Assembly (NCBI GenBank): GCA_963719085.1
Contig: CAVRAL010000005.1
Span: 32,001-96,000 of the forward strand
Direction: 5' to 3'
Length of the DNA: 64,000 nt
Source: a candidate division FCPU426 bacterium
Lineage (GTDB): Bacteria > Oederibacteriota > Muellerivitia > Muellerivitales > Muellerivitaceae
The notes beneath the pieces were generated by a model. That model was not told the origin of the DNA, made no database searches, and was given only the letters and a program-made list of their open reading frames with translations. Within the stretch, counting starts at the first letter, position 1; each line of letters begins with the position of its first letter. This document shows, one piece after another, positions 652 to 59,172 of the stretch. The translations under genes and the position numbers were made by a program.

Positions 652-2061
652 TAAGGTAGAAAAACTGCAAAATTACAGTGGATTTTTCTTTTCGTTTATT
701 TATATATGGTTTGATAGAGCGTGAAAAGCTGATCACGAATATATATATTTTATTTCGATTTGATCGCTATTTGGCTGAAAAACGTTAAACAAGTTGAACG
801 ACTACAAATGTCGTATATGCAGCTAAAACTCGTTTCTTTTACAGAAATTGTTAAATTTCAGGGTCATTTATTTTGTTAAACTTTTTTTAAATATTATATT
901 CTGAATCAGCATGAAAAACTGAATTAGAAAATGCTATTTGATTAGACTCAAAGCTAAAAAAAGTTTAAAAAATTCGGTCCAGTATAAATACCTCGACATG
1001 CTCAAAAGTGACTAACCGTGTAAACCTATCTAGTTTTTTGTAATAAGAGATAAAAACAACTATCATATCTCGTTAGAATCGTCAGATCGTGGGCTACAAA
1101 AGTACCTATTTAGTTTTCTTAAATTTTTTTTAATGTTGAGAAAATTAAAGTTTTTTCATATTTGGTGGCAAAATCAAGTGAAAAGACGAAAAATGCGTTA
1201 GTTTTTGGGAAAATCCAATACCATAGCTCAGTAGAAATGAAAAATAAATAAGATATTCAGAATCAGCGTAAAAAACTACGTCGAATCACATATGTTTCAA
1301 AAAAAAAGAAATTTTATGAAATTTCAGCCTGTGGGGGACCCCAGGCAAAATCTTTACGAAATTCTGCTGAGGGGGAGTACAGGTCATTTTTGCGATGGAA
1401 ATATTTTTGCCTAAAGAATATGTGATTCGACGTAGTTTTTTACGCTGATTCTGAATATCTTATTTATTTTTCATTTCTACTGAGCTATGGTATTGGATTT
1501 TCCCAAAAACTAACGCATTTTTCGTCTTTTCACTTGATTTTGCCACCAAATATGAAAAAACTTTAATTTTCTCAACATTAAAAAAAATTTAAGAAAACTA
1601 AATAGGTACTTTTGTAGCCCACGATCTGACGATTCTAACGAGATATGATAGTTGTTTCTATCTCTTATTACAAAAAACTAGATAGGTTTACACGGTTAGT
1701 CACTTTTGAGCATGTCGAGGTATTTATACTGGACCGAATTTTTTAAACTTTTTTTAGCTTTGAGTCTAATCAAATAGCATTTTCTAATTCAGTTTTTCAT
1801 GCTGATTCAGAATATAATATTTAAAAAAAGTTTAACAAAATAAATGACCCTGAAATTTAACAATTTCTGTAAAAGAAACGAGTTTTAGCTGCATATACGA
1901 CATTTGTAGTCGTTCAACTTGTTTAACATTTTTCTCAGCCAAATAGCGATCAAATCGAAATAAAATATATATATTCGTGATCAGCTTTTCACGCTCTATC
2001 AAACCATATATAAATAAACGAAAAGAAAAATCCACTGTAATTTTGCAGTTTTTCTACCTTA
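652..2061. mobile_element. Foldback / long-TIR non-autonomous DNA transposon (arms ~652-1293 and ~1418-2061, spacer ~124 bp)
   Basis: taaggtagaaaaactgcaaaattacagtgga... is the reverse complement of ...tccactgtaattttgcagtttttctacctta over ~640 bp with a few differences; no transposase ORF. Confidence 0.85.
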
Positions 2062-3253: not shown

Positions 3254-3644
3254 ACCAATACGATATGTTAGAATAACACATGTCACTGTTAATTGTTAAT
3301 AAATATCTTAGAATGTTGGCAACTCACATTCATTTTGTGCATGTCTGCTAGTAAACCAATGATAAAATATTGAACTATTTTTAAAAAGAAGTATCCGCGA
3401 ATTCTCTTCATCAATTATATACAAGAAATTTTCTTAGTTTTTCCCATCGATTTTAGTCTCTTATGTAATAAATTTTATTCGTAACTTCGGTTTCTATGAA
3501 CAAATTTTACGAGCATCGCTTCTGATTACCAATATCATGTTGAGAAAAAATCAATCTTACCTGATTATTAAAATAGTATTTCGTGAAGTTACTTTTTCAA
3601 TTGTTATAATCTTTTTTGACTATTACTAAACTACTGCTTATAAT

Positions 3645-3723
3645 TAGGGATGCAACGGTGACGGTGAGCCACCGGTCTCACCGGTCTATCGGTGGACCGG
3701 TGACCGTCACCGTTGCATGCCTA
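3645..3723. mobile_element. hAT-type MITE, 79 bp
   Basis: TIR tagggatgcaacggtgacggt...accgtcaccgttgcatgccta; perfect 8-bp TSD cttataat at 3637-3644 and 3724-3731. Confidence 0.9.
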
Positions 3724-4214
3724 CTTATAATGGTTACAAAAAAATTAGAAGGGAGCCGTACAAGGTCGGAACTATAGAAAGATAAGATACAGCTGATAGT
3801 TTCAACATTATTGGTAAACTCCATCAGTCTGACTTAGAAATTGCTGATGAAATACGTCATATAACAACAGATGTCTAGATTCAACTACAAATGACATTGG
3901 ATAGAGCTATTATAAGCAAGAATCATAGATCTTGATCAAGAAAAGAGTAGCTCCACCACTTGTAAAGATTATCTGATAAATATCAAGATATTCGAAACTT
4001 TAATTTGTTATTGAATATAATTAGAAGATAAAACACCCAATTCACAGTTAAGAATATATTCATTTAATAATCTTCTTTTTCTACAAGAATAAATTCACAT
4101 ATAACAAAGATACACACAACACACACAATTAACTAGAGAATTAGGAAGACGAAAATACATAGAAATAATAATGTACAGAGACAAAAAAGGGTTAATGTTC
4201 ACTGATCAACAATT

Positions 4215-9059: not shown

Positions 9060-9169
9060 TAGGGATGCAACGGTGACGGTGAGCCACCGGTCACCGGTTC
9101 ACCGATCCACCGGTCTCACCGGTCTATCGGTGGACCGGTGGACCGGTGACCGTCACCGTTGCATGCCTA
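9060..9169. mobile_element. hAT-type MITE, 110 bp, same family as 3645-3723
   Basis: Same TIRs; perfect 8-bp TSD ttgttgac at 9052-9059 and 9170-9177. Confidence 0.9.
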
Positions 9170-20319: not shown

Positions 20320-20483
20320 CATGCCCCGGGATTCCATGTTGAATTCATAGATACCCGGAACAATGCCGCTTTTCCCCTAACTACGATATGGAGAAGCGAC
20401 GCGAACGCGGATGAACGCGGATTAGAATAAACATTTGTTTAAGTCGTTTCACATCGGCGTTCATCTGCGTCCATCATTGTAAA
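20320..20483 (-). repeat. GAT-decamer REP-like palindrome carrying the 80-bp double-hairpin insert (20324-20403)
   Basis: Reverse-orientation homolog of the copies at 24540, 53445, 54497 and 59012. Confidence 0.85.
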
Positions 20484-20540
20484 ATTGATTTTGGGCCTTT
20501 TAGGTTTTCGGATGAAAAATGTAGACGTCGGGAAAAGACT

Positions 20541-24530: not shown

Positions 24531-24539
24531 CAAAAACTA

Positions 24540-24703
24540 TTTAACATTGATAAAAGCGGATGAACACTGATGGGAAAACATTTAATCTTTTGTCCGCCTA
24601 ACATCTGCGTCCGCGTCGCTTCTCCATATGGTAGTTAGGGGAGAGCGACATTGCCCCGGGCATCTTCGACTTCAATAAGGAGGCCCGGGACATCATTGTT
24701 AAA
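24540..24703 (+). repeat. GAT-decamer REP-like palindrome carrying the 79-bp insert (24612-24690)
   Basis: ttaacattgat...atcattgttaa termini; lies between convergent mazG and corA. Confidence 0.88.
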
Positions 24704-24718
24704 ATGCATTTGTCTGAG

Positions 24719-30970: not shown

Positions 30971-31120
30971 ACGGAACGATTCACTTCACAAAACAAGACC
31001 TGTTGAAACATTGATGGAGGCTGATAAAGGCCGATTTTTACGCCTCAAATATCAGCCTTCATCCGCACTTATCATTGTTTCAAAAGCCGGACCTTGCCCA
31101 ATTTGTAAAAAAATAGTTCC
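30971..31120. repeat. Outer GGAAC..GTTCC unit containing an empty GAT-decamer palindrome (31003-31083)
   Basis: Homologous over its length to 36894-37041. Confidence 0.82.
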
Positions 31121-36893: not shown

Positions 36894-37041
36894 ACGGAAT
36901 TATTCACTTCACAACGCAAACCCTATTGAAACATTGATGGAGGCTGATGATGCCGATTTTTGGCACAAATATCAGTCTTCATCGGCATTTATCGTTGTTT
37001 CAAAAGCCGGTCACCGCTCTCTTTGTCAAAGGCATTGTTCC
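36894..37041. repeat. Outer unit containing an empty GAT-decamer palindrome (36926-37003), between pstS and pstC
   Basis: Homolog of 30971-31120. Confidence 0.82.
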
Positions 37042-47101: not shown

Positions 47102-48613
47102 ATGCCGACCTTAGGTTCTATTGACGTCGGATCCAACGCCATGCGTTTGGCCGTTGGGTTCGTGGACCGAAACCGCAACCTTCATGTCGTGGAGGATATC
47201 CGCGAGCCGGTTCGTTTGGGACAAGACGTTTTCACCAAAGGTTCCATCAGCCGGGAAACCACCCAAAAAGCCGTGGAAGCTTTCAAACGTTTCCGGGAAG
47301 TGCTCGAACAGCACCAGGTCGTCCAGGTTCGGGCCGTCGGAACCAGCGCCCTGCGGGAAGCCCGCAACCGGGATATTTTCCTCAAAAAAATAGCGCAAAC
47401 CAGCGGCCTAGAGCTCAAGACCATCGGGTCCGAGGAAGAAGCCCTCTTGGTTTACCTGGCTGTCTCCAAAAAAATAGCCCTCGAGGACAAGACCGCCATG
47501 CTGATTGATATCGGCGGCGGCAGCGTGGAAGTGACCCTGGCCCGCAACGCCAAGATTTTGGCCACCGAAAGCTTCAAAATGGGCGCGGTGCGCCTGATGC
47601 AGGTTTTGGAACAAAAAACCTACGGCGAAAAAAAATTCAACCTGATGCTCCAAGAATACGTGGAAGCCGCGCGCAAACGGTTCAATCAAAAATTGGCGGG
47701 GCAAAAAGCGGAAATCTGCGTGGGCACCGGCGGCAACGTGGACGCCCTCTCGGATTTAAAGGGCCAGCTTTTGCGCTCCACCGACACCGGCTTCGTCACC
47801 CAAAAGGAATTGGATCTTTTAATCGCCAAGCTTCGCAAACTTTCCTATGAAGACCGCATCCTGAAGCTACGCCTGCGTCCGGACCGCGCGGACGTCATTT
47901 TACCCGCAGCCATCGTGCTTCGGGAAATTATGAAGGTCGGCAAAGCCACCCGGGTCTACATTCCCCATGTGGGCTTGAAGGAAGGCATCCTGATCGACAT
48001 GGTGTCCGAGCTTCTAAGCGGCAAGCCTCCCCTGCACCGGGACGAGGTATTGGCCGCCGCCAAGTTGCTGGGACAGAAATACCAATACGACGAACCGCAC
48101 GCCCAGCAAGTGGCCAAACTGTCCGTTGAGTTGTTCGACAAAACCAAAAAACTCCACCGCCTGGGCGACGACAACCGTTTGCTTTTGGAAGCCGCCGCCT
48201 ATGTGCATGACATCGGCCAATTCGTCAATTACGCCGCCCATCACAAACATTCCTATTACCTGATCCGTTCCTCACAAATCATGGGGCTCAACGACCATCA
48301 GCTGGAACTGGTGGCCAATATCGCCCGCTACCACCGCAAAGCCGTACCCCTTTTAAAACATGAGTCTTACCGCGCGCTGGAACCCAAAGACCGGGTCCTG
48401 GTCGCCAAGCTCGCTTCCCTTTTGCGCGTCGCCGACGCCATGGACCACGAGCACGCGTCCAAAGTCCAAGGCTTTAAAGTGCAGTATAAACGGCCCCATT
48501 TTTCCGTGACCCTGCGCGGGCATGACGATCTTCTTCTAGAAAAATGGTCCTTGCTAAAAAAATCCGATTTGTTCCAAAAGACTTTCAAGCTTAAATTTTC
48601 AGTAAGAAGCTGA
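47102..48613 (+). CDS. ppx: Exopolyphosphatase Ppx/GppA with HD domain
   Basis: IDVGSNA, TSALREA, DIGGGSVE, RADVI, HDIG, HHKHS. Confidence 0.95.
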   Translation: MPTLGSIDVGSNAMRLAVGFVDRNRNLHVVEDIREPVRLGQDVFTKGSISRETTQKAVEAFKRFREVLEQHQVVQVRAVGTSALREARNRDIFLKKIAQTSGLELKTIGSEEEALLVYLAVSKKIALEDKTAMLIDIGGGSVEVTLARNAKILATESFKMGAVRLMQVLEQKTYGEKKFNLMLQEYVEAARKRFNQKLAGQKAEICVGTGGNVDALSDLKGQLLRSTDTGFVTQKELDLLIAKLRKLSYEDRILKLRLRPDRADVILPAAIVLREIMKVGKATRVYIPHVGLKEGILIDMVSELLSGKPPLHRDEVLAAAKLLGQKYQYDEPHAQQVAKLSVELFDKTKKLHRLGDDNRLLLEAAAYVHDIGQFVNYAAHHKHSYYLIRSSQIMGLNDHQLELVANIARYHRKAVPLLKHESYRALEPKDRVLVAKLASLLRVADAMDHEHASKVQGFKVQYKRPHFSVTLRGHDDLLLEKWSLLKKSDLFQKTFKLKFSVRS

Positions 48614-48620
48614 GGCATTC

Positions 48621-49053
48621 AACAATGATGGACGCAGATGAACGCGGATGAGAACTATGGAAATAAATGAAATAACGGAAAAGACGATTGGAGCCGCCTA
48701 TAAAGTGAGCAACGCCTTGGGAGCGGGGTTTTTGGAAAAGGTTTACGAAAACGCCCTTTTCCTTGAATTACAAAAAATTGGTTTGAAAGTTAACCGGCAG
48801 CATCCGATTGTCGTCCGATACGAAGCTAATATTGTCGGGGAATATTTCGCGGATTTGCTAGTCGAGGATAAGGTCCTTATCGAACTAAAGACGGTCGAAA
48901 GTCTCTCGTCTATTCATTCAGCACAATGTTTAAATTATTTGAAAGCAACCGGTTTTAATGTGTGTCTTCTAATGAATTTTGCGGAAAGAAAATTGAAAAT
49001 AAAACGTTTAGTGAATCATTTTTAATCTGCGTTCATCTGCGTTCATCATTGTT
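48621..49053 (+). mobile_element. 29-bp inverted-repeat cassette enclosing the GxxExxY gene
   Basis: aacaatgatggacgcagatgaacgcggat (48621-48649) pairs with atctgcgttcatctgcgttcatcattgtt (49025-49053). Confidence 0.75.
48648..49025 (+). CDS. GxxExxY protein (PD-(D/E)XK nuclease-like fold)
   Basis: LGAGFLEKVYENAL, ADLLVEDKVLIELK, Q.LNYLKA; more AT-rich than its neighbours. Confidence 0.93.
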   Translation: MRTMEINEITEKTIGAAYKVSNALGAGFLEKVYENALFLELQKIGLKVNRQHPIVVRYEANIVGEYFADLLVEDKVLIELKTVESLSSIHSAQCLNYLKATGFNVCLLMNFAERKLKIKRLVNHF

Positions 49054-49073
49054 AATTGAAGGAGTGTTTTATT

Positions 49074-49772
49074 ATGGTCACAAAAGCGAAGCCCAAAGAA
49101 ATTGAAGGCAAGTTGATCGCGGTGGAAGGCCTGGACGGCTCGGGTAAATCCACCCAAATCCGCCTTTTGAAGCGTTGGCTGGAATTGGAAGGCTATAAGG
49201 TTTTTTTCACCGAGTGGAATTCCTCCGAGTTGGTGAAAAAAGCCACCCGTAAGGGGAAAAAGAAAAAACTTTTGACGCCCACCACCTTTTCCTTGATCCA
49301 TTGCACCGATTTCGCCGACCGTTACGAAAGACAAATTTTACCCCTGCTGAAGGGCGGCTATATTGTTTTGGCCGACCGCTATGTCTACACCGCCTTCGCC
49401 CGAGACGCGGTGCGCGGCTGCGATAAGGATTGGCTGCGGAAGCTCTATCGTTTCGCCCGCAAACCCGACATCACCTTCTTTTTCGAGGTTCCCCTGGACG
49501 TCGCCCTGGGCCGCATTTTGGACGGACGGCCGGCCTTGAAATACCACGAAGCCGGTATGGACATGGGCTTTTCCAAGGACCCTTATGAATCCTTTAAAAT
49601 TTTCCAGGGCAAGATTTATGAGGAATACGGGCGCATCTTCAAGGAATTCCCGGCTGAAAAAGTGAACGCCACCGAGCCTTCCGAAATCCAACAGGCCAAG
49701 ATGCGGGACATCGTCAAAAAACGAATCGACCTAAAATCCTTTAAATTGAAGACCCAGGGAGCGCGCGTATGA
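49074..49772 (+). CDS. Thymidylate-kinase-fold protein 1 (candidate polyphosphate kinase subunit)
   Basis: EGLDGSGKST, ADRY; ggag RBS. Confidence 0.85.
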   Translation: MVTKAKPKEIEGKLIAVEGLDGSGKSTQIRLLKRWLELEGYKVFFTEWNSSELVKKATRKGKKKKLLTPTTFSLIHCTDFADRYERQILPLLKGGYIVLADRYVYTAFARDAVRGCDKDWLRKLYRFARKPDITFFFEVPLDVALGRILDGRPALKYHEAGMDMGFSKDPYESFKIFQGKIYEEYGRIFKEFPAEKVNATEPSEIQQAKMRDIVKKRIDLKSFKLKTQGARV

Positions 49773-50557
49773 GATCCAAACGTTTTTACGGCAAAGGATT
49801 GCCGAATGTGGACCCGAGCCAGCTGAAAGGAACCCTGATTGTGCTGGAAGGATCCGATGGCAGCGGCCGCTCCACCCAAATCGGGCTTCTTCAAAATTGG
49901 CTGGAACGCCGGGGATTCCCCACGGTCGTCGTCGGGCTGAAGCGCTCCGAGTTGGTGGGGGAAGCCCTCGCCGAGGCCATGCGGGGAAACACGCTGAACG
50001 CCATCACCTTGAATCTTTTTTACGCCACCGATTTCGCCGACCAGTTGGAGCGGGTGCTTTTACCGGCCTTGAAATCAGGTTTCGTGGTTTTGGCCGACCG
50101 CTATATCTATACCTTAATGGCCCGGGACATTGTGCGCGGGTCATCTTTGGAATGGCTGAAAGAAATCTACGGCATCGCCCTGGTGCCGGACGCGGTTTTT
50201 TACTTGAACGTCAGCCCCAAGCTTTTGGCCGAACGCAATTTCCGCAAACGGGGATTTTTGGACTATTGGGAATCGGGAATGGACATCCAGCGGGTGGGCG
50301 GCATGTACGATAATTTCATAAAGTACCAGTCCAAGCTGCACCGCATCTTCGAGACGCTTCAAAAAGAATACGCTTTTACCACCATCCAAGGCGGCCGGTC
50401 CGTCCGGGCCGTCTTCAAAGAAATTAAAACCAAGGTGGAAAAGATATTGACCGCTTCCTCCGCGGCGGAAAAGTCGGCCATGGCCTTGGAAATCTCAGCC
50501 GTCACCGTGGAGCCGACCGAGCACCCCTCCGAAAGCGACGACTCCACAGCCAAATAA
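49769..50557 (+). CDS. Thymidylate-kinase-fold protein 2 with a variant P-loop
   Basis: EGSDGSGRST (K replaced by R), ADRY; ATGA overlap with the upstream paralog. Confidence 0.85.
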   Translation: MRSKRFYGKGLPNVDPSQLKGTLIVLEGSDGSGRSTQIGLLQNWLERRGFPTVVVGLKRSELVGEALAEAMRGNTLNAITLNLFYATDFADQLERVLLPALKSGFVVLADRYIYTLMARDIVRGSSLEWLKEIYGIALVPDAVFYLNVSPKLLAERNFRKRGFLDYWESGMDIQRVGGMYDNFIKYQSKLHRIFETLQKEYAFTTIQGGRSVRAVFKEIKTKVEKILTASSAAEKSAMALEISAVTVEPTEHPSESDDSTAK

Positions 50558-53426: not shown

Positions 53427-53636
53427 AAGCGACGGCAAATTCTATTTAACATTGATAAATGCTGATGAAGACTGATGTGTGAAACACAAAAAATCGGGCC
53501 CTATCAGCCTCCGCATCGCTTCCCCATATAGAAGTTAGGGGAGAGCGACATTGTCCCGGGCATCCTCGACTTCGATATAGAGCCCCGGGGCATCAATGTT
53601 TCAATATGTCTTGCTTTGCGAAGTCAATGATTCCGT
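53417..53636 (+). repeat. Fully nested copy: outer unit, GAT-decamer palindrome (53445-53604), 79-bp insert (53512-53590)
   Basis: Right flank is a reverse-complement homolog of the left flanks at 30971 and 36894. Confidence 0.88.
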
Positions 53637-53777
53637 AAATATTTATCTGCGTAAATCTGCGTCTATCACTGCTAATTGCCCTGGTTGGAGACCCCAGCCC
53701 TGGGGTATTTGTTACTGGAACGTAACAGGGCGTTTCACGATGCCTTACAAGCAAATCTTAGACTCATCCCCGACAAC

Positions 53778-54482: not shown

Positions 54483-54496
54483 CCCCCCCAAACCAA

Positions 54497-54641
54497 TTTA
54501 CAATGATGAACGCTGATAAATCCAGAACCTCTGTTTTAGTCATCTGCGTCCGCGTCGCTTCTCCACATAACAGTTAGAGGAGGGCGACATTGTCCCGGGC
54601 ATCCATGACTGCAATAGGGTGCCCCGGGACATCATTGTAAA
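54497..54641 (+). repeat. GAT-decamer palindrome carrying the 79-bp insert (54551-54629)
   Basis: tttacaatgat...atcattgtaaa termini; lies between convergent genes. Confidence 0.88.
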
Positions 54642-54657
54642 ATTATTCGTTTTGTCT

Positions 54658-58684: not shown

Positions 58685-58789
58685 GGCCCACTCCCCGAGG
58701 CAGAATTGGCTTAAACGGGAGCTCGAACGGAGGGACCTTCGAAAGAAGGCATTACTCCGCTTCTTACACCCGAAGAAGCATCAACAACG

Positions 58790-58943
58790 CTCAAGGCCGG
58801 TCTCCTGACTTGGGAATCTGACGTTCGCCTTCCCGGGCTTTCACCCAGTGGCCGCCTCATTGAAGAGGCCTGAACGGTAGAATTGCTTCCCTTACAGTGG
58901 CGGGTCCGCGCCGGATTCTCACCGGCTTCCCGATCACCTTGAG
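58790..58943 (-). ncRNA. Cobalamin riboswitch
   Basis: gggaagccggtgagaatccggcgcggacccgccactgt, gccactg..gggaagg, and B12 box aagtcaggagaccggcc on the minus strand. Confidence 0.95.
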
Positions 58944-58981
58944 TTGTGCGTACTTAATACCTGCCTTTTCAAAAACTGTCA

Positions 58982-59172
58982 ACGGAATTTAAATCCTCTA
59001 ATAAAAATTAATTTCACAATGATAAATGCTGATGAAGACTGATATTTGAAAAACACAAAATCAGACCCCATCAGCCTCCGCATCGCTTTTCCATATAACC
59101 GTTAGGGGAAAGCGATATTGTCCCGGGCATCTTTCACTTTGATATGGAATCCCGGGACATCAATGATTCCGT
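58982..59172 (+). repeat. Nested copy with acggaat..attccgt ends and the 79-bp insert (59079-59157)
   Basis: Closest to the 53417 copy, but ~31 bp shorter on the right between two tcaatg repeats. Confidence 0.85.

Follow-up and report, generated by a model that had tools for sequence, protein, structure and literature searches.

A GxxExxY nuclease gene within a dispersed palindrome suggests an apparently undescribed, REP/RAYT-like kind of selfish mobile DNA with a different enzyme

The cassette, its protein and its copies in the window

The window analysed here, a 64,000-nucleotide stretch of a contig from a candidate division FCPU426 bacterium, contains a small nuclease gene enclosed by inverted arms and situated between a ppx gene and two dTMP-kinase-like genes (Table 1). 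The arms are 39 nt long and 85% complementary. They contain a 29-nt core (48621-48649 against 49025-49053) in which 27 of 29 positions pair. The two exceptions, at 48631 and 48646, are each a left-arm G facing a right-arm T, a G-T on the + strand, exactly as the first-pass annotation of this DNA had described. Its observation that the ends of the open reading frame (ORF) overlap the arms was likewise correct: the first ATG (48648) and an SD-like GGATGAG are located at the inner end of the left arm, and the stop codon TAA extends to the opening nucleotide of the right core. The ORF at 48648-49025 on the + strand encodes 125 aa, or 122 aa if started at the second ATG (48657), which gives the family-matching length. 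The inverted repeat (IR) score of the cassette is 24, while a score of 14 was reached by 1 of 271 shifted control windows in other loci.

Table 1. Coordinates of the cassette, its host genes and the gene-less copies of its arms in the window
Feature	Coordinates	Strand	Remarks
Gene-less type-A hairpin	20403-20487		two-hairpin module remnant abuts left side (20365-20400)
Gene-less type-A element	24537-24704		two-hairpin module inserted in right arm
Gene-less type-A element, divergent subfamily	31005-31085		GATGGAGGC units
Gene-less type-A element, same divergent subfamily as 31005	36928-37005		below nhmmer threshold; found via motif search
Ppx/GppA-family phosphatase, upstream host gene	47102-48613	+	stop 3 nt before left arm
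Left arm	48616-48654	+	outer tip TTCAACAATGAT, then ~2.5 tandem 10-nt GATGRACGCN units; nhmmer E 1.4e-10
GxxExxY / PDDEXK_3 gene	48657-49025	+	G24-x-x-E27-x-x-Y30, D66 and E76-x-K78 intact
Right arm	49020-49058	+	mirror image of left arm; TAA 49023-49025 overlaps inner end; nhmmer E 6.2e-11
dTMP-kinase-like protein, downstream host gene	49074-49772	+	AAGGAG ribosome-binding site between right arm and ATG
Second dTMP-kinase-like gene	49769-50557	+	follows the first
Gene-less type-A element	53442-53679		160-nt spacer contains two-hairpin module
Gene-less type-A element with module	54493-54644		between convergent genes; cleanly absent at orthologous site of congeneric G001
Gene-less type-A element with module	59010-59170		adjoins cobalamin riboswitch

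The earlier placement of the cassette within the ppx operon also held, as all genes lie on the same strand and a simple scan of 48300-49300 identified neither a sigma-70-like promoter nor a + strand terminator. An Rfam scan of the window matched no family covering the arms, its sole match being the cobalamin riboswitch. The nuclease gene is, as had been claimed, richer in AT than its neighbours, with a GC content of 0.379 compared with 0.544 for ppx and 0.514 and 0.550 for the two kinase-like genes.

The 14-kDa window protein is a member of the GxxExxY (TIGR04256) / PDDEXK_3 (PF13366) family, passing both curated cut-offs over its full length (TIGR04256: E 1.3e-41, 141.6 bits against a cut-off of 35, positions 1-116 of 116; PF13366: E 3.8e-40, 137.3 bits against a cut-off of 22, profile positions 1-116 of 117). 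This family is large, with 15,992 clusters at 50% identity matching at E<=1e-3. Residues G24, E27, Y30, D66, E76 and K78 are invariant among 52 aligned sequences and all are kept in the window protein, such that its predicted catalytic E-D-ExK residues are intact. An AF2 model (pLDDT 95.5) has the alpha-alpha-beta-beta-beta-alpha-beta-beta core of a PD-(D/E)XK fold. The closest folds in a Foldseek search are all PD-(D/E)XK nucleases, namely Cas4 (4ic1), lambda exonuclease (6m9k, 1avq) and the archaeal Holliday-junction resolvase Hjc (2wiw, 2wj0), and these matches are weak (E 9e-4 to 1e-2, TM 0.45-0.59, identity 15-19%); tRNA-splicing endonucleases are weak structural neighbours too. Solved structures searched by sequence gave no meaningful match, and Cas4-type Fe-S cysteines were not evident in the invariant columns of the 52-sequence alignment. 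The nuclease matched nothing in PHROGs or PADLOC, including any PADLOC defence model. The GxxExxY family is scarcely represented on mobile vehicles: in the collections searched, it occurs in 0 phage records and in 7 of 72,556 plasmid records.

The arm motif matched the window 18 times, compared with 1.31 matches expected, and 0 of 100 shuffles reached 18. All seven gene-less palindromes that the first-pass annotation listed are real copies of the cassette's arm family (Table 1), four or five of them with a two-hairpin module inside one arm. What had been taken for an orphan arm (53639-53679) is instead the right arm of the element starting at 53442, set apart by a module inserted in the spacer.

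Arm families within the genome and across phyla

Four GxxExxY genes were identified in the genome, each flanked by arms in which an outer tip precedes 2-3 units of 8-10 nt arranged in tandem. These arms comprise three families: type A (unit GATGAACGCN), with one gene; type B (unit CACCAAGR), also with one gene; and type C (unit CGCAAAGACGCTAAGA), with two genes, one of which has an internal TGA. The consensus ends of the arms are TTTaACAATGAT (A), TTCACCAC (B) and CTCACGC / AACCAAC (C). The four genes are of foreign composition, with a GC content of 0.38-0.45 against ~0.53 for the genome, and each arm family is also present as dozens of gene-less hairpins.

A census of the genome recovered 323 arms at E<=0.05, which form 122 plus-then-minus pairs and only 2 close minus-then-plus pairs. 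Spacers within the 122 pairs are nearly all shorter than 160 nt, and in six pairs they measure at least 300 nt. Four of these six contain a GxxExxY gene, one contains an unrelated 154-aa ORF and one is doubtful (weak arms, 2.9 kb, ordinary genes), so that GxxExxY occupies four of the five well-supported gene-sized pairs. Arms flanking random genes as often as GxxExxY genes, which the first-pass annotation had named as evidence against its proposal, are thus not what the census revealed. A further suggestion, that the hairpin captures cargo genes, was borne out once, by the 154-aa ORF, and this is an exception, as GxxExxY fills the other well-supported spacers. We considered and rejected the 154-aa ORF as a second regular cargo, because its homologues, found at 4 other metagenome loci, all lack unit-type arms; it belongs to no Pfam, PHROG or PADLOC family and is absent from 30 family genomes.

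Gene-less copies exceed genes by ~30:1 (~120 hairpins to 4 genes). This excess, together with the unrelated ORF in one arm pair, would be consistent with the hairpins being an independent REP-like family that is spread or maintained by host processes or by another enzyme, with GxxExxY as a passenger specialised in hairpin loops, a reading that we regard as unlikely. It is similarly unlikely, in our view, that the stem serves to insulate and throttle a GxxExxY protein whose own job lies elsewhere, for example in repair, defence or structured-DNA processing. A different mover is not apparent: we found no other candidate enzyme, and a search for RAYT/Y1 transposases (PF01797) that succeeded in control genomes gave no match in this 99.08%-complete genome. 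The occupancy of four of five gene-sized pairs and the lack of a matching PADLOC defence model also argue against GxxExxY being a passenger, as does the tip of the arms. The sequence CAWTGAT forms the tip of 112 of the 142 type-A arms in the genome, as it does in the resident cassette, and of 0 of 59 cross-phylum cassettes, of which 49 have CCRCNGAT. This genome-specific tip suggests that the gene-less copies and the resident cassette share a common lineage within the genome. When the loops of gene-less hairpins were searched for remnants of gene ends, only an inner ATTTTTAATC-like boundary recurred, which is suggestive rather than decisive.

Close relatives of the window protein (53-65% identity) are distributed across more than 10 phyla plus archaea, and 59 of the 76 that could be evaluated have a flanking IR score of at least 14 and the same 10-nt units, compared with the single control window in 271. 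Across phyla the arm tip RCCRC is found in 85 of 127 cassettes, and arm identity is 0.86 within a cassette against 0.67 between cassettes (47/49). In a tree of 73 family genes, the deepest split (support 100/100) falls between 47 genes with xAAG/CAGAG arms and 26 genes whose arms are GAT-type or not clear, and no gene crosses it. Individual subclades have unit variants of their own, and a label-clustering value this low was reached in 0 of 500 shuffles. Arm type therefore tracks protein clade, to subclade level and across phyla, which again argues against a passenger. Arms and protein would also diversify together through their physical linkage alone. Complementarity between arms was 0.91 in register and 0.87 when shifted by one unit (p=0.10), in a measure biased by IR picking; these values do not discriminate between hairpin pairing and arrays of similar binding sites.

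The co-occurrence of arms and GxxExxY genes across genomes, which had been put forward as a check, was observed: the median number of type-A arm hits is 13 in genomes with a clade-II gene (n=18) and 1 in genomes without (n=13; one-sided Mann-Whitney p=0.011). In four genomes the arm pattern gave 0 hits despite the presence of a clade-II gene. Arms also occur where no gene was detected, as in G046 (89% complete), where type-A arms gave 40 hits and PF13366 none, and in G001 (82% complete), with many B/C-type arms and no GxxExxY gene, and such genomes favour an independent hairpin family.

Occupied sites, empty sites and the RNA level

The ppx/kinase junction could be read in 19 of the 20 relatives fetched. 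An empty site, which the first-pass annotation had proposed to look for at this position, was found in 8 of the 19 (15 nt or less between the genes), congeneric G001 among them, and in 8 of the 19 the stop codon of ppx adjoins or runs into the start of the kinase gene. One additional relative, G009, retains a 192-nt remnant bounded by arms, in which the N- and C-terminal codons of the gene are fused by deletion. The junction bears the gene in four relatives, and all four have arms; relatives keeping the gene without arms, the second finding named as contrary to the proposal, were not encountered. The REP/RAYT-like pairing put forward in the first-pass annotation, of a dispersed palindrome with a flanked enzyme of another class in autonomous and non-autonomous forms, has therefore withstood two in silico attempts at refutation, and it gains further support from the three arm families with their own genes, the tracking of arms with protein clades, the common tip and the lack of a RAYT match.

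The cassettes at the ppx junction fall into two protein/arm groups, and on a ppx+kinase tree the gene-bearing state is scattered, with G000 sister to empty G001 (support 100) and G005 sister to empty G020 (support 98). Gain and precise loss are both compatible with these data, and the junction cannot be polarised. None of the five window type-A elements testable against G001 is present at the orthologous site, and further clean absences were found for AA_1203201 and BB_1197519. At one orthologous site the elements of G000 and G001 differ in their units, which would fit site re-use or in-place conversion as well as transposition. No target-site duplication was seen at clean empty/filled pairs, and by eye none is consistent across the flanks of 116 elements; the 9-12 nt resemblance around AAGGAG at the ppx/kinase junction could be a duplication or merely the ribosome-binding site. 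Among public assembled contigs (Logan, 4 DNA runs), which are blind to rare alleles, there was no direct ppx-kinase join, and the apparent joints are other gene-less hairpins with different loops rather than excision products.

At the RNA level, the predicted fold pairs 48615-48649 with 49024-49058 (z -4.05) and places the start codon within the stem. Among gene-less elements, 89 of 116 are flanked by genes transcribed in the same direction, and their median distance from the stop codon upstream is 20 nt. The first-pass annotation had interpreted the G-T wobbles of the window cassette as a sign of selection on a single strand, and this does not generalise: across 59 gene-bearing cassettes, sense-strand mismatches are 59 G-T and 55 A-C, without bias. 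A skew is found in gene-less copies within operons, where transcribed-strand mismatches are G-T in 123 cases and A-C in 76 (p=0.001; 44 against 21 elements), while intergenic sense-strand skews are small. The fold, the operon positions and this skew would all suit a system in which operon transcripts use the arms as RNA stems, be it as insulators, as 3' stabilisers or as sites for RNase III, comparable to REP elements and to the stems of intervening sequences in 23S rRNA, and the dispersal of copies is secondary. The tRNA-splicing endonucleases among the weak structural neighbours would suit a GxxExxY protein that acts on structured RNA, or is merely expressed from it. We find the first of these proposals decidedly unlikely and the second no less so. 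Gene-bearing cassettes lack the wobble bias, the 123:76 skew could stem from transcription- or replication-linked mutation bias, and the nearest folds are the DNA nucleases Cas4, lambda exonuclease and Hjc. Furthermore, presence/absence polymorphism, foreign GC content, the spread of gene and arms across phyla and arm-protein co-diversification would all be left unexplained.

Many broken copies of the GxxExxY family, with frameshifts and stops, were identified. Together with the G009 remnant, in which a cassette is decaying in place, the start codon sequestered in the stem and the foreign composition of the gene, they would be in line with an addiction or defence module, in which the nuclease acts as effector or toxin, the palindrome serves only as a shell that regulates it, and each gene-less hairpin is a decayed cassette instead of an active non-autonomous element. 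We consider this very unlikely, as no antitoxin-sized partner ORF was found inside the cassette arms and neither PADLOC nor PHROGs was matched. The imbalance between hairpins and genes, with loops that are too short and too varied to be decayed genes, and the insertion-type differences of gene-less copies between congeneric genomes also speak against it.

A candidate mobile element and its relation to known systems

Collectively, the sequence data suggest that the cassette is an apparently undescribed kind of selfish mobile DNA, similar to REP/RAYT systems with a different enzyme. We judge the chances to be evenly balanced that it is the autonomous form of a selfish palindromic mobile element whose non-autonomous derivatives are the gene-less hairpins, with the nuclease as the putative enzyme that moves the arms. 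This interpretation builds on the observed anatomy, copy families, insertion/absence polymorphism, deletion remnant, arm-protein co-diversification and intact catalytic residues. In the mechanism that we envisage, the nuclease would recognise the unit array of its own arm family and cut at or near the arm tips, in the duplex or in an extruded hairpin. We know of no strand-transfer activity in a PD-(D/E)XK nuclease of 122 aa, and it would therefore not be a complete transposase. Since a nuclease of this size cannot join DNA, host repair or recombination would have to copy or move the element, presumably by homing-like copying between arm-bearing sites; the same incapacity for strand transfer, established for PD-(D/E)XK enzymes, would also suit a passenger gene. 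Occasional insertion may take place just downstream of stop codons, without consistent target duplication, and internal deletions would yield gene-less hairpins that persist and still respond to the enzyme in trans. In the transcript, as judged from the fold and the positions, the arms would form an RNA stem of ~35 bp that hides the nuclease start codon and should be an RNase III substrate; by keeping expression low, this stem could make insertion inside operons tolerable.

Several observations count against the element as proposed. These include the persistence of arms without a detectable gene in G046 and G001, the four genomes with a clade-II gene and 0 arm hits, the unrelated ORF in one arm pair, the absence of target-site duplication at clean sites, the near-absence of the family from phage and plasmid records, and the unpolarised ppx junction and different units at one G000/G001 site. 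We hold more tentatively, and as somewhat doubtful, the broader proposal that GxxExxY proteins serve a class of prokaryotic mobile element, hitherto unrecognised, as its enzymes. Such an element would be a palindromic cassette that encodes only a nuclease and has arms made up of short protein-recognition units in arrays; it would spread with its arms across bacterial and archaeal phyla and seed REP-like hairpin families in each host.

If true, this would provide a function for a very large protein family that a survey of PD-(D/E)XK proteins lists as 'Unknown' (PMC3424549), an origin for abundant intergenic hairpin repeats in many uncultured and cultured phyla, and a second way of filling the REP/RAYT niche, with an unrelated enzyme. 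Matched nuclease/unit pairs could then be mined as compact sequence-specific DNA-binding or DNA-cutting modules and, since unit sequences vary together with protein clade, GxxExxY proteins would provide a naturally occurring set of small sequence-specific nucleases whose protein-DNA specificity can be read. The hairpin repeats also break assemblies, with contigs of the public runs ending at arms, and within operons they may alter mRNA processing.

New here are the four armed GxxExxY genes, the three arm families, the junction polymorphism, the tracking of arm type with protein clade and the arms across phyla. In a literature search that extended to journals other than subscription titles, no published description of arms around GxxExxY genes was found, and the main text of a MITE survey does not contain the relevant terms (PMC11602168). 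Similar to MITEs and their parent insertion sequences, the proposed element has autonomous and internally deleted forms with common terminal inverted repeats, the G009 remnant being such a deletion. It differs in forming a near-perfect palindrome over its entire length, in having no transposase of the DDE or another known type, in encoding a small nuclease as its only ORF, and in showing no duplication at clean empty/filled pairs. The intervening sequences (IVS) of 23S rRNA, with an ORF for the S23p four-helix bundle (PF05635), offer another parallel in the Coxiella IVS paper (PMC4990558), as a small ORF within a long stem of inverted flanks in a transcribed unit, considered selfish and expected to be cut by RNase III. 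In contrast to these, the cassette lies in an mRNA operon between protein-coding genes, encodes another ORF family and has tandem-unit arms and many gene-less copies; the Rfam scan of the window matched no rRNA, and PF05635 had no match in the genome.

With Cas4, lambda exonuclease and Hjc the nuclease shares the PD-(D/E)XK core and the E..D..ExK active site, and with Hjc its size, whereas the structural match is weak, sequence-level matches are lacking and Cas4-type Fe-S cysteines are not evident. Hjc cuts four-way junctions, the shape taken by an extruded palindrome. Homing endonuclease genes, which include PD-(D/E)XK-type ones such as I-Ssp6803I, are similarly small nuclease genes of patchy, horizontally spread distribution that copy themselves via host repair, as the cassette is proposed to do. 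Unlike them, the cassette lies outside any intron or intein, and it would target a dispersed repeat instead of one conserved site in a gene.

REP/RAYT systems consist of short intergenic palindromes in tens to hundreds of copies, mostly past gene 3' ends, and of one or few enzyme genes per genome, each located between inverted copies of its own repeat family. Several families with cognate genes can be found per genome, repeats and enzymes co-diversify, and the unit is a hairpin doublet. REP, REPIN and BIME repeats and their RAYT (TnpA-REP, HUH Y1) genes have been described (PMC3116915, PMC3333891, PMC8266576, PMC3733652), the REP sequence having a conserved GTAG or CGTC tetranucleotide at one end (PMC3733652). 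Our cassette differs in its enzyme, a 122-aa PD-(D/E)XK nuclease rather than a HUH tyrosine transposase, with no Y1_Tnp gene in the genome; in its arms, which are arrays of 8-10 nt tandem units with an RCCRC/CAWTGAT tip and no GTAG/CGTC tag; in the placement of the gene in the loop of a single palindrome; and in the occurrence of gene and arms together across more than 10 phyla and archaea. What it has in common with REP/RAYT systems is a population of dispersed gene-less palindromes, mostly after gene 3' ends, an enzyme gene flanked by inverted copies of them, three arm families with one, one and two cognate genes, arm-protein co-diversification and a hairpin doublet.

Anatomy of the cassette and its copies

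The gene between ppx and the kinase genes belongs to PF13366 (PDDEXK_3, E 3.8e-40) and TIGR04256 (GxxExxY, E 1.3e-41), matching both over the full length in profile searches. Sequence searches found no solved relative of its protein. An AlphaFold2 model from a 52-row alignment (pLDDT 95.5) has a helix-helix-strand-strand-strand-helix-strand-strand core, whose Foldseek neighbours are PD-(D/E)XK proteins, all of them weak: Cas4 SSO0001 (E 9e-4), lambda exonuclease, Bax1, splicing endonucleases, and Hjc, which is of the same size (TM ~0.47). Columns G22, G24, L26, E27, Y30, E31, D66, E76, K78, Q90, L95, F108 and R117 are invariant, and the E..D..ExK site is thus intact.

The first-pass annotation described this gene as filling the loop of a palindrome, and the anatomy of the cassette, meaning the gene with its two inverted arms, bears this out. 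The 29-nt core arms (48621-48649 and 49025-49053) pair at 27 of 29 positions, both exceptions (48631 and 48646) being G opposite T on the + strand; the first ATG falls inside the left arm, at its inner end, and on the other side the TAA runs up to the right arm and touches its first base. In each arm an outer tip (TTCAACAATGAT) leads into about 2.5 tandem units of 10 nt, GATGRACGCN, and the window contains 18 matches to the arm motif where 1.31 are expected. The gene is AT-rich, as had been remarked (GC 0.379, against 0.544, 0.514 and 0.550 in its neighbours). Its proposed operon setting stands as to gene order, with a Ppx/GppA-family gene, the cassette and two dTMP-kinase-like genes all on one strand; a simple scan gave no promoter-like site around the cassette. 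The two kinase-like genes score 86.7 and 75.1 bits against an equivalog cut-off of 83.25, and their pairing with ppx is conserved throughout the family.

All seven gene-less palindromes listed in the first pass proved to be true copies of the cassette's arm family. The supposed orphan arm (53639-53679) is instead the right arm of an element starting at 53442, whose spacer carries a two-hairpin module. This module (~74 nt; hairpins GTCGCTTCTCC..GGAGAGCGAC and CCCGGGC..GCCCGGG) also lies within one arm of elements 24537, 54493 and 59010 and adjoins element 20403; where it is inserted within a type-A arm the slot is the same, and further copies occur elsewhere in the source genome (C4:148277 and C1:1034963). 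Other repeats and elements of the window are listed in the table; the long inverted repeat is part of the first 10 kb, which is AT-rich (GC 0.473 for the whole window, 0.502 for 10001-64000).

Table. Features of the window and arm-bounded genes of the source genome (bare coordinates are window positions; C1 and C4 are contigs of the source genome)
Feature	Location	Strand	Details
GxxExxY/PDDEXK_3 ORF	48648-49025	+	125 aa; 122 aa from ATG 48657
Cassette arms (inverted)	48616-48654 and 49020-49058		39 nt, 85% complementary
dTMP-kinase-like genes	49074-49772 and 49769-50557		tandem, overlapping; downstream of ppx
Two-hairpin module	24600-24690, 53505-53600, 54560-54630, 59075-59150; reversed at 20365-20400		
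Cobalamin riboswitch	58778-58956	-	96.9 bits; directly adjoins gene-less element 59010
Inverted repeat, 531 nt	777-1307 and 1404-1934		98% complementary, 96 nt between arms
Separate palindromic repeat family	3638-3730, 9060-9169, 9088-9152		TAGGGATGCAACGGTGACGGT arms twice, plus a 25-nt palindrome of CACCG/GACCG-like units
Type A arms	gene: window gene		unit GATGAACGCN, period 10 nt
Type B arms	gene: C4:972859		unit CACCAAGR, period 8 nt
Type C arms	genes: C4:283826 and C4:693746		unit CGCAAAGACGCTAAGA, period 8 nt; internal TGA in C4:693746
Type-C pair with 154-aa ORF	C4:1219850-1220551	- (ORF)	ORF at 549-1013 of fetched locus L214

Three arm families in the source genome, each with its own gene

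A profile search of the source genome (G000; 3.04 Mb in 5 contigs, 99% complete) returned four PF13366 genes, all of which lie between unit-built inverted arms of three kinds. Profiles built from these arms recovered 366 arms (168 type A, 137 type B and 61 type C), and the 323 with E<=0.05 comprise 122 plus-then-minus pairs and 79 single arms. The minus-then-plus order is seen in just 2 close pairs, and the element thus has a definite inside and outside. Nearly all spacers are shorter than 160 nt, and only 6 of the 122 measure at least 300 nt: four are the GxxExxY genes (363, 415, 406 and 532 nt), one is an unrelated ORF (620 nt, type C), and one, of 2.9 kb with weak arms and two ordinary genes, is probably two unrelated single arms. 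Arms around random genes as often as around GxxExxY had been set beforehand as a refuting observation; the long spacers instead show that arms do not flank random genes. The unrelated ORF belongs to an uncharacterised family with 60 homologues and no Pfam or other family assignment, is found in the source genome alone among 31 genomes of the host's family (not found in the other 30), and has no unit-type arms at its four other metagenome loci; arms therefore do capture other genes, but as an exception.

The 116 gene-less elements lie between co-directional (89), convergent (16) or divergent (8) genes or inside ORFs (3), against background gaps of 1464, 285 and 292, respectively, at a median of 20 nt from the upstream stop, these counts resting on crude ORF calls. 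Type-A arms in this genome end in the tip CAWTGAT in 112 of 142 cases, like the resident cassette, and in CCRCNGAT in 3; among 59 cross-phylum cassettes CCRCNGAT occurs in 49 and CAWTGAT in 0. Within this genome, the resident gene and the copies that lack a gene are thus of one lineage.

The congeneric genome G001 (82% complete) has no PF13366 match and 1 type-A arm hit, against 89 in the source genome, yet arms of types B and C are numerous in it, so that arms can evidently be kept where no gene is detected. This persistence is what would be expected if the hairpins were independent REP-like repeats and the GxxExxY gene a passenger, an account that we consider rather unlikely next to the spacer contents and the shared tip. 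No arms were present at the orthologous G001 sites of window type-A elements (5 of 5 testable); for element 54493 the absence is clean, and the filled/empty pair shows no target duplication. Among eight further sites, AA_1203201 and BB_1197519 are cleanly absent and several sites hold unalignable DNA. At one intergenic site (locus L213), a type-C element (G000:C1:1167712-1167875) faces an element of CGCGGAGG-like units (G001:C11:4860-5019), which could be site re-use or in-place arm conversion. The type-C element at C1:1174232, through which the syntenic alignment runs, appears to be common to both genomes.

Occupied and empty sites, and linkage of gene and arms across phyla

The ppx-kinase region was located by DNA search in 24 of 40 relatives, and the junction was fetched in 20 same-family genomes and readable in 19. 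An empty site, whose existence had been proposed as a check, occurs in 8 of the 19 (G001, G019, G002, G013, G023, G004, G011 and G020), where at most 15 nt separate the ppx stop from the kinase start, the two abutting or overlapping, and the end of ppx contains the ribosome-binding site. G001 is of the same genus, with 91-94% protein identity in the flanking genes. Four junctions (G005, G006, G014 and G015) carry the gene with arms at exactly the same site. The G009 junction holds a 192-nt arm-bounded remnant with the gene's first and last codons fused, a MITE-type internal deletion. The remaining 6 measure 35-173 nt and have no clear arms. In G014 and G015 (loci L016 and L017) the cassette is flanked by extra complete gene-less hairpins of the same family in nested or tandem arrangements.

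On the ppx+kinase tree the gene-bearing state is scattered: G000 is sister to empty G001 (support 100), G005 to empty G020 (support 98), and G014 to the empty pair G013+G023. This pattern would fit either several entries of the cassette or several precise losses, and either way the cassette behaves as a discrete unit; support for the element reading is comparative throughout, and separating gain from loss needs rooted, denser sampling. The junction cassette proteins are 72, 66, 64 and 61% identical to the window protein, and a deltaproteobacterial one 65%. They form two protein/arm groups (G000-G014-G015 and G005-G006), which the trees do not place firmly with respect to each other. Around AAGGAG, the end of ppx and the sequence immediately past the right arm resemble each other over 9-12 nt, which may reflect a target duplication or simply the ribosome-binding site required by the kinase gene.

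A scan of one genome per species gave 587 relatives, the best 80 of which (53-65% identity) span Deltaproteobacteria, Chloroflexi, Planctomycetes, Verrucomicrobia, Acidobacteria, Bacteroidetes, Cyanobacteria, Actinomycetota, Bacillota, Methanosarcinales, Methanoperedens and others. A flanking inverted-repeat score of at least 14 was found for 59 of 76 close relatives with enough flank, against 1 of 271 shifted control windows, and the cross-phylum arms have the same 10-nt GATGAACRCN units and tip AACCRC. Some relatives (P0061, P0064, P0066, P0070 and others) are 250-290 aa long with two tandem GxxExxY domains, and may represent dimers fused into one chain or the read-through of two cassettes. 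In a representative library 15,992 clusters match at E<=1e-3 and 4,424 at E<=1e-10.

Within the host's family, PF13366 occurs in 27 of 31 genomes, and 65 of all 73 near-full-length genes have a flanking score of at least 12. The deepest split of the 73-gene tree has support 100 on both sides, and arm groups never cross it: the 26-gene side has GAT-type (14), variant (8) or no arms (4), and the 47-gene side xAAG (24), CAGAG (14), other (5) or no arms (4), with subclades carrying their own unit variants. Arm labels change 21 times on this tree against 42.1 when shuffled (0 of 200 shuffles as low), and a 118-row tree including the cross-phylum set gives the same picture. Arm identity is 0.86 within a cassette against 0.67 between same-class cassettes (47 of 49), and the tip RCCRC occurs in the outer 14 nt of 85 of 127 cassettes, whereas shuffles have it there in 265 of 2540 cases.

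The co-occurrence of arms and gene, proposed in the first pass as a check, was also observed, with a median of 13 type-A arm hits in genomes with a gene of clade II, the protein clade counted (n=18), and 1 in those without (n=13; one-sided Mann-Whitney p=0.011 over 31 genomes, related ones among them not being independent). G046 (40 hits and no gene; 89% complete), G041 and G011 depart from this, as do four genomes that have the gene and no hit to the type-A arm pattern; inverted-repeat detection was ungapped, and repeats assemble poorly in fragmented MAGs, which many of the genomes are. An addiction or defence module whose gene-less hairpins are decayed copies is the account we find hardest to credit; the many broken PF13366 copies in the family speak for it, and the lack of any PADLOC or PHROG match to the window protein speaks against it. 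Family matches were found in 0 phage records and 7 of 72,556 plasmid records.

A proposed mechanism and its likeness to known systems

The first pass had read the G-T exceptions as single-strand selection; they are present in the window cassette, but are no general rule, since 59 gene-bearing cassettes have no sense-strand bias (59 G-T vs 55 A-C, p=0.78). On the transcribed strand of the 89 co-directional gene-less elements, G-T exceeds A-C (123 vs 76, p=0.001; 44 vs 21 elements), and intergenic sense-strand skews are small (GC +0.015, TA +0.04). The excess is a hint that RNA stems are selected for or tolerated, though it may also come from a transcription-linked mutation bias. The cassette RNA is predicted to pair 48615-48649 with 49024-49058 (z -4.05), enclosing the start codon and an SD-like GGATGAG. 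A function at the RNA level, for which this fold and the wobble excess of the gene-less elements speak and against which the unbiased gene-bearing cassettes do, seems improbable to us.

The reading we put forward, to which we give about even credence on these comparisons, is that the nuclease would recognise its own arms by their array of units and cut near the tips. Host repair would then copy or move the element; it is invoked because a PD-(D/E)XK enzyme this small is not known to join DNA. Gene-less copies would be deletion products acted on in trans, and the RNA stem would limit nuclease expression and make insertion into an operon tolerable.

A 2012 survey (PMC3424549) lists PF13366 as a family of unknown function with multiple transfers. 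In the literature searched, no publication describes GxxExxY genes with flanking arms. The 23S rRNA intervening sequences resemble the cassette in shape only. The REP/RAYT-like pairing with a different enzyme suggested in the first pass is upheld, in that dispersed palindromes accompany an arm-flanked nuclease gene, with no Y1/RAYT or PF05635 gene in the 99% complete source genome. The cassette system is like REP/REPIN-RAYT in its way of working, but differs from it in the defining features of enzyme class and REP tag.
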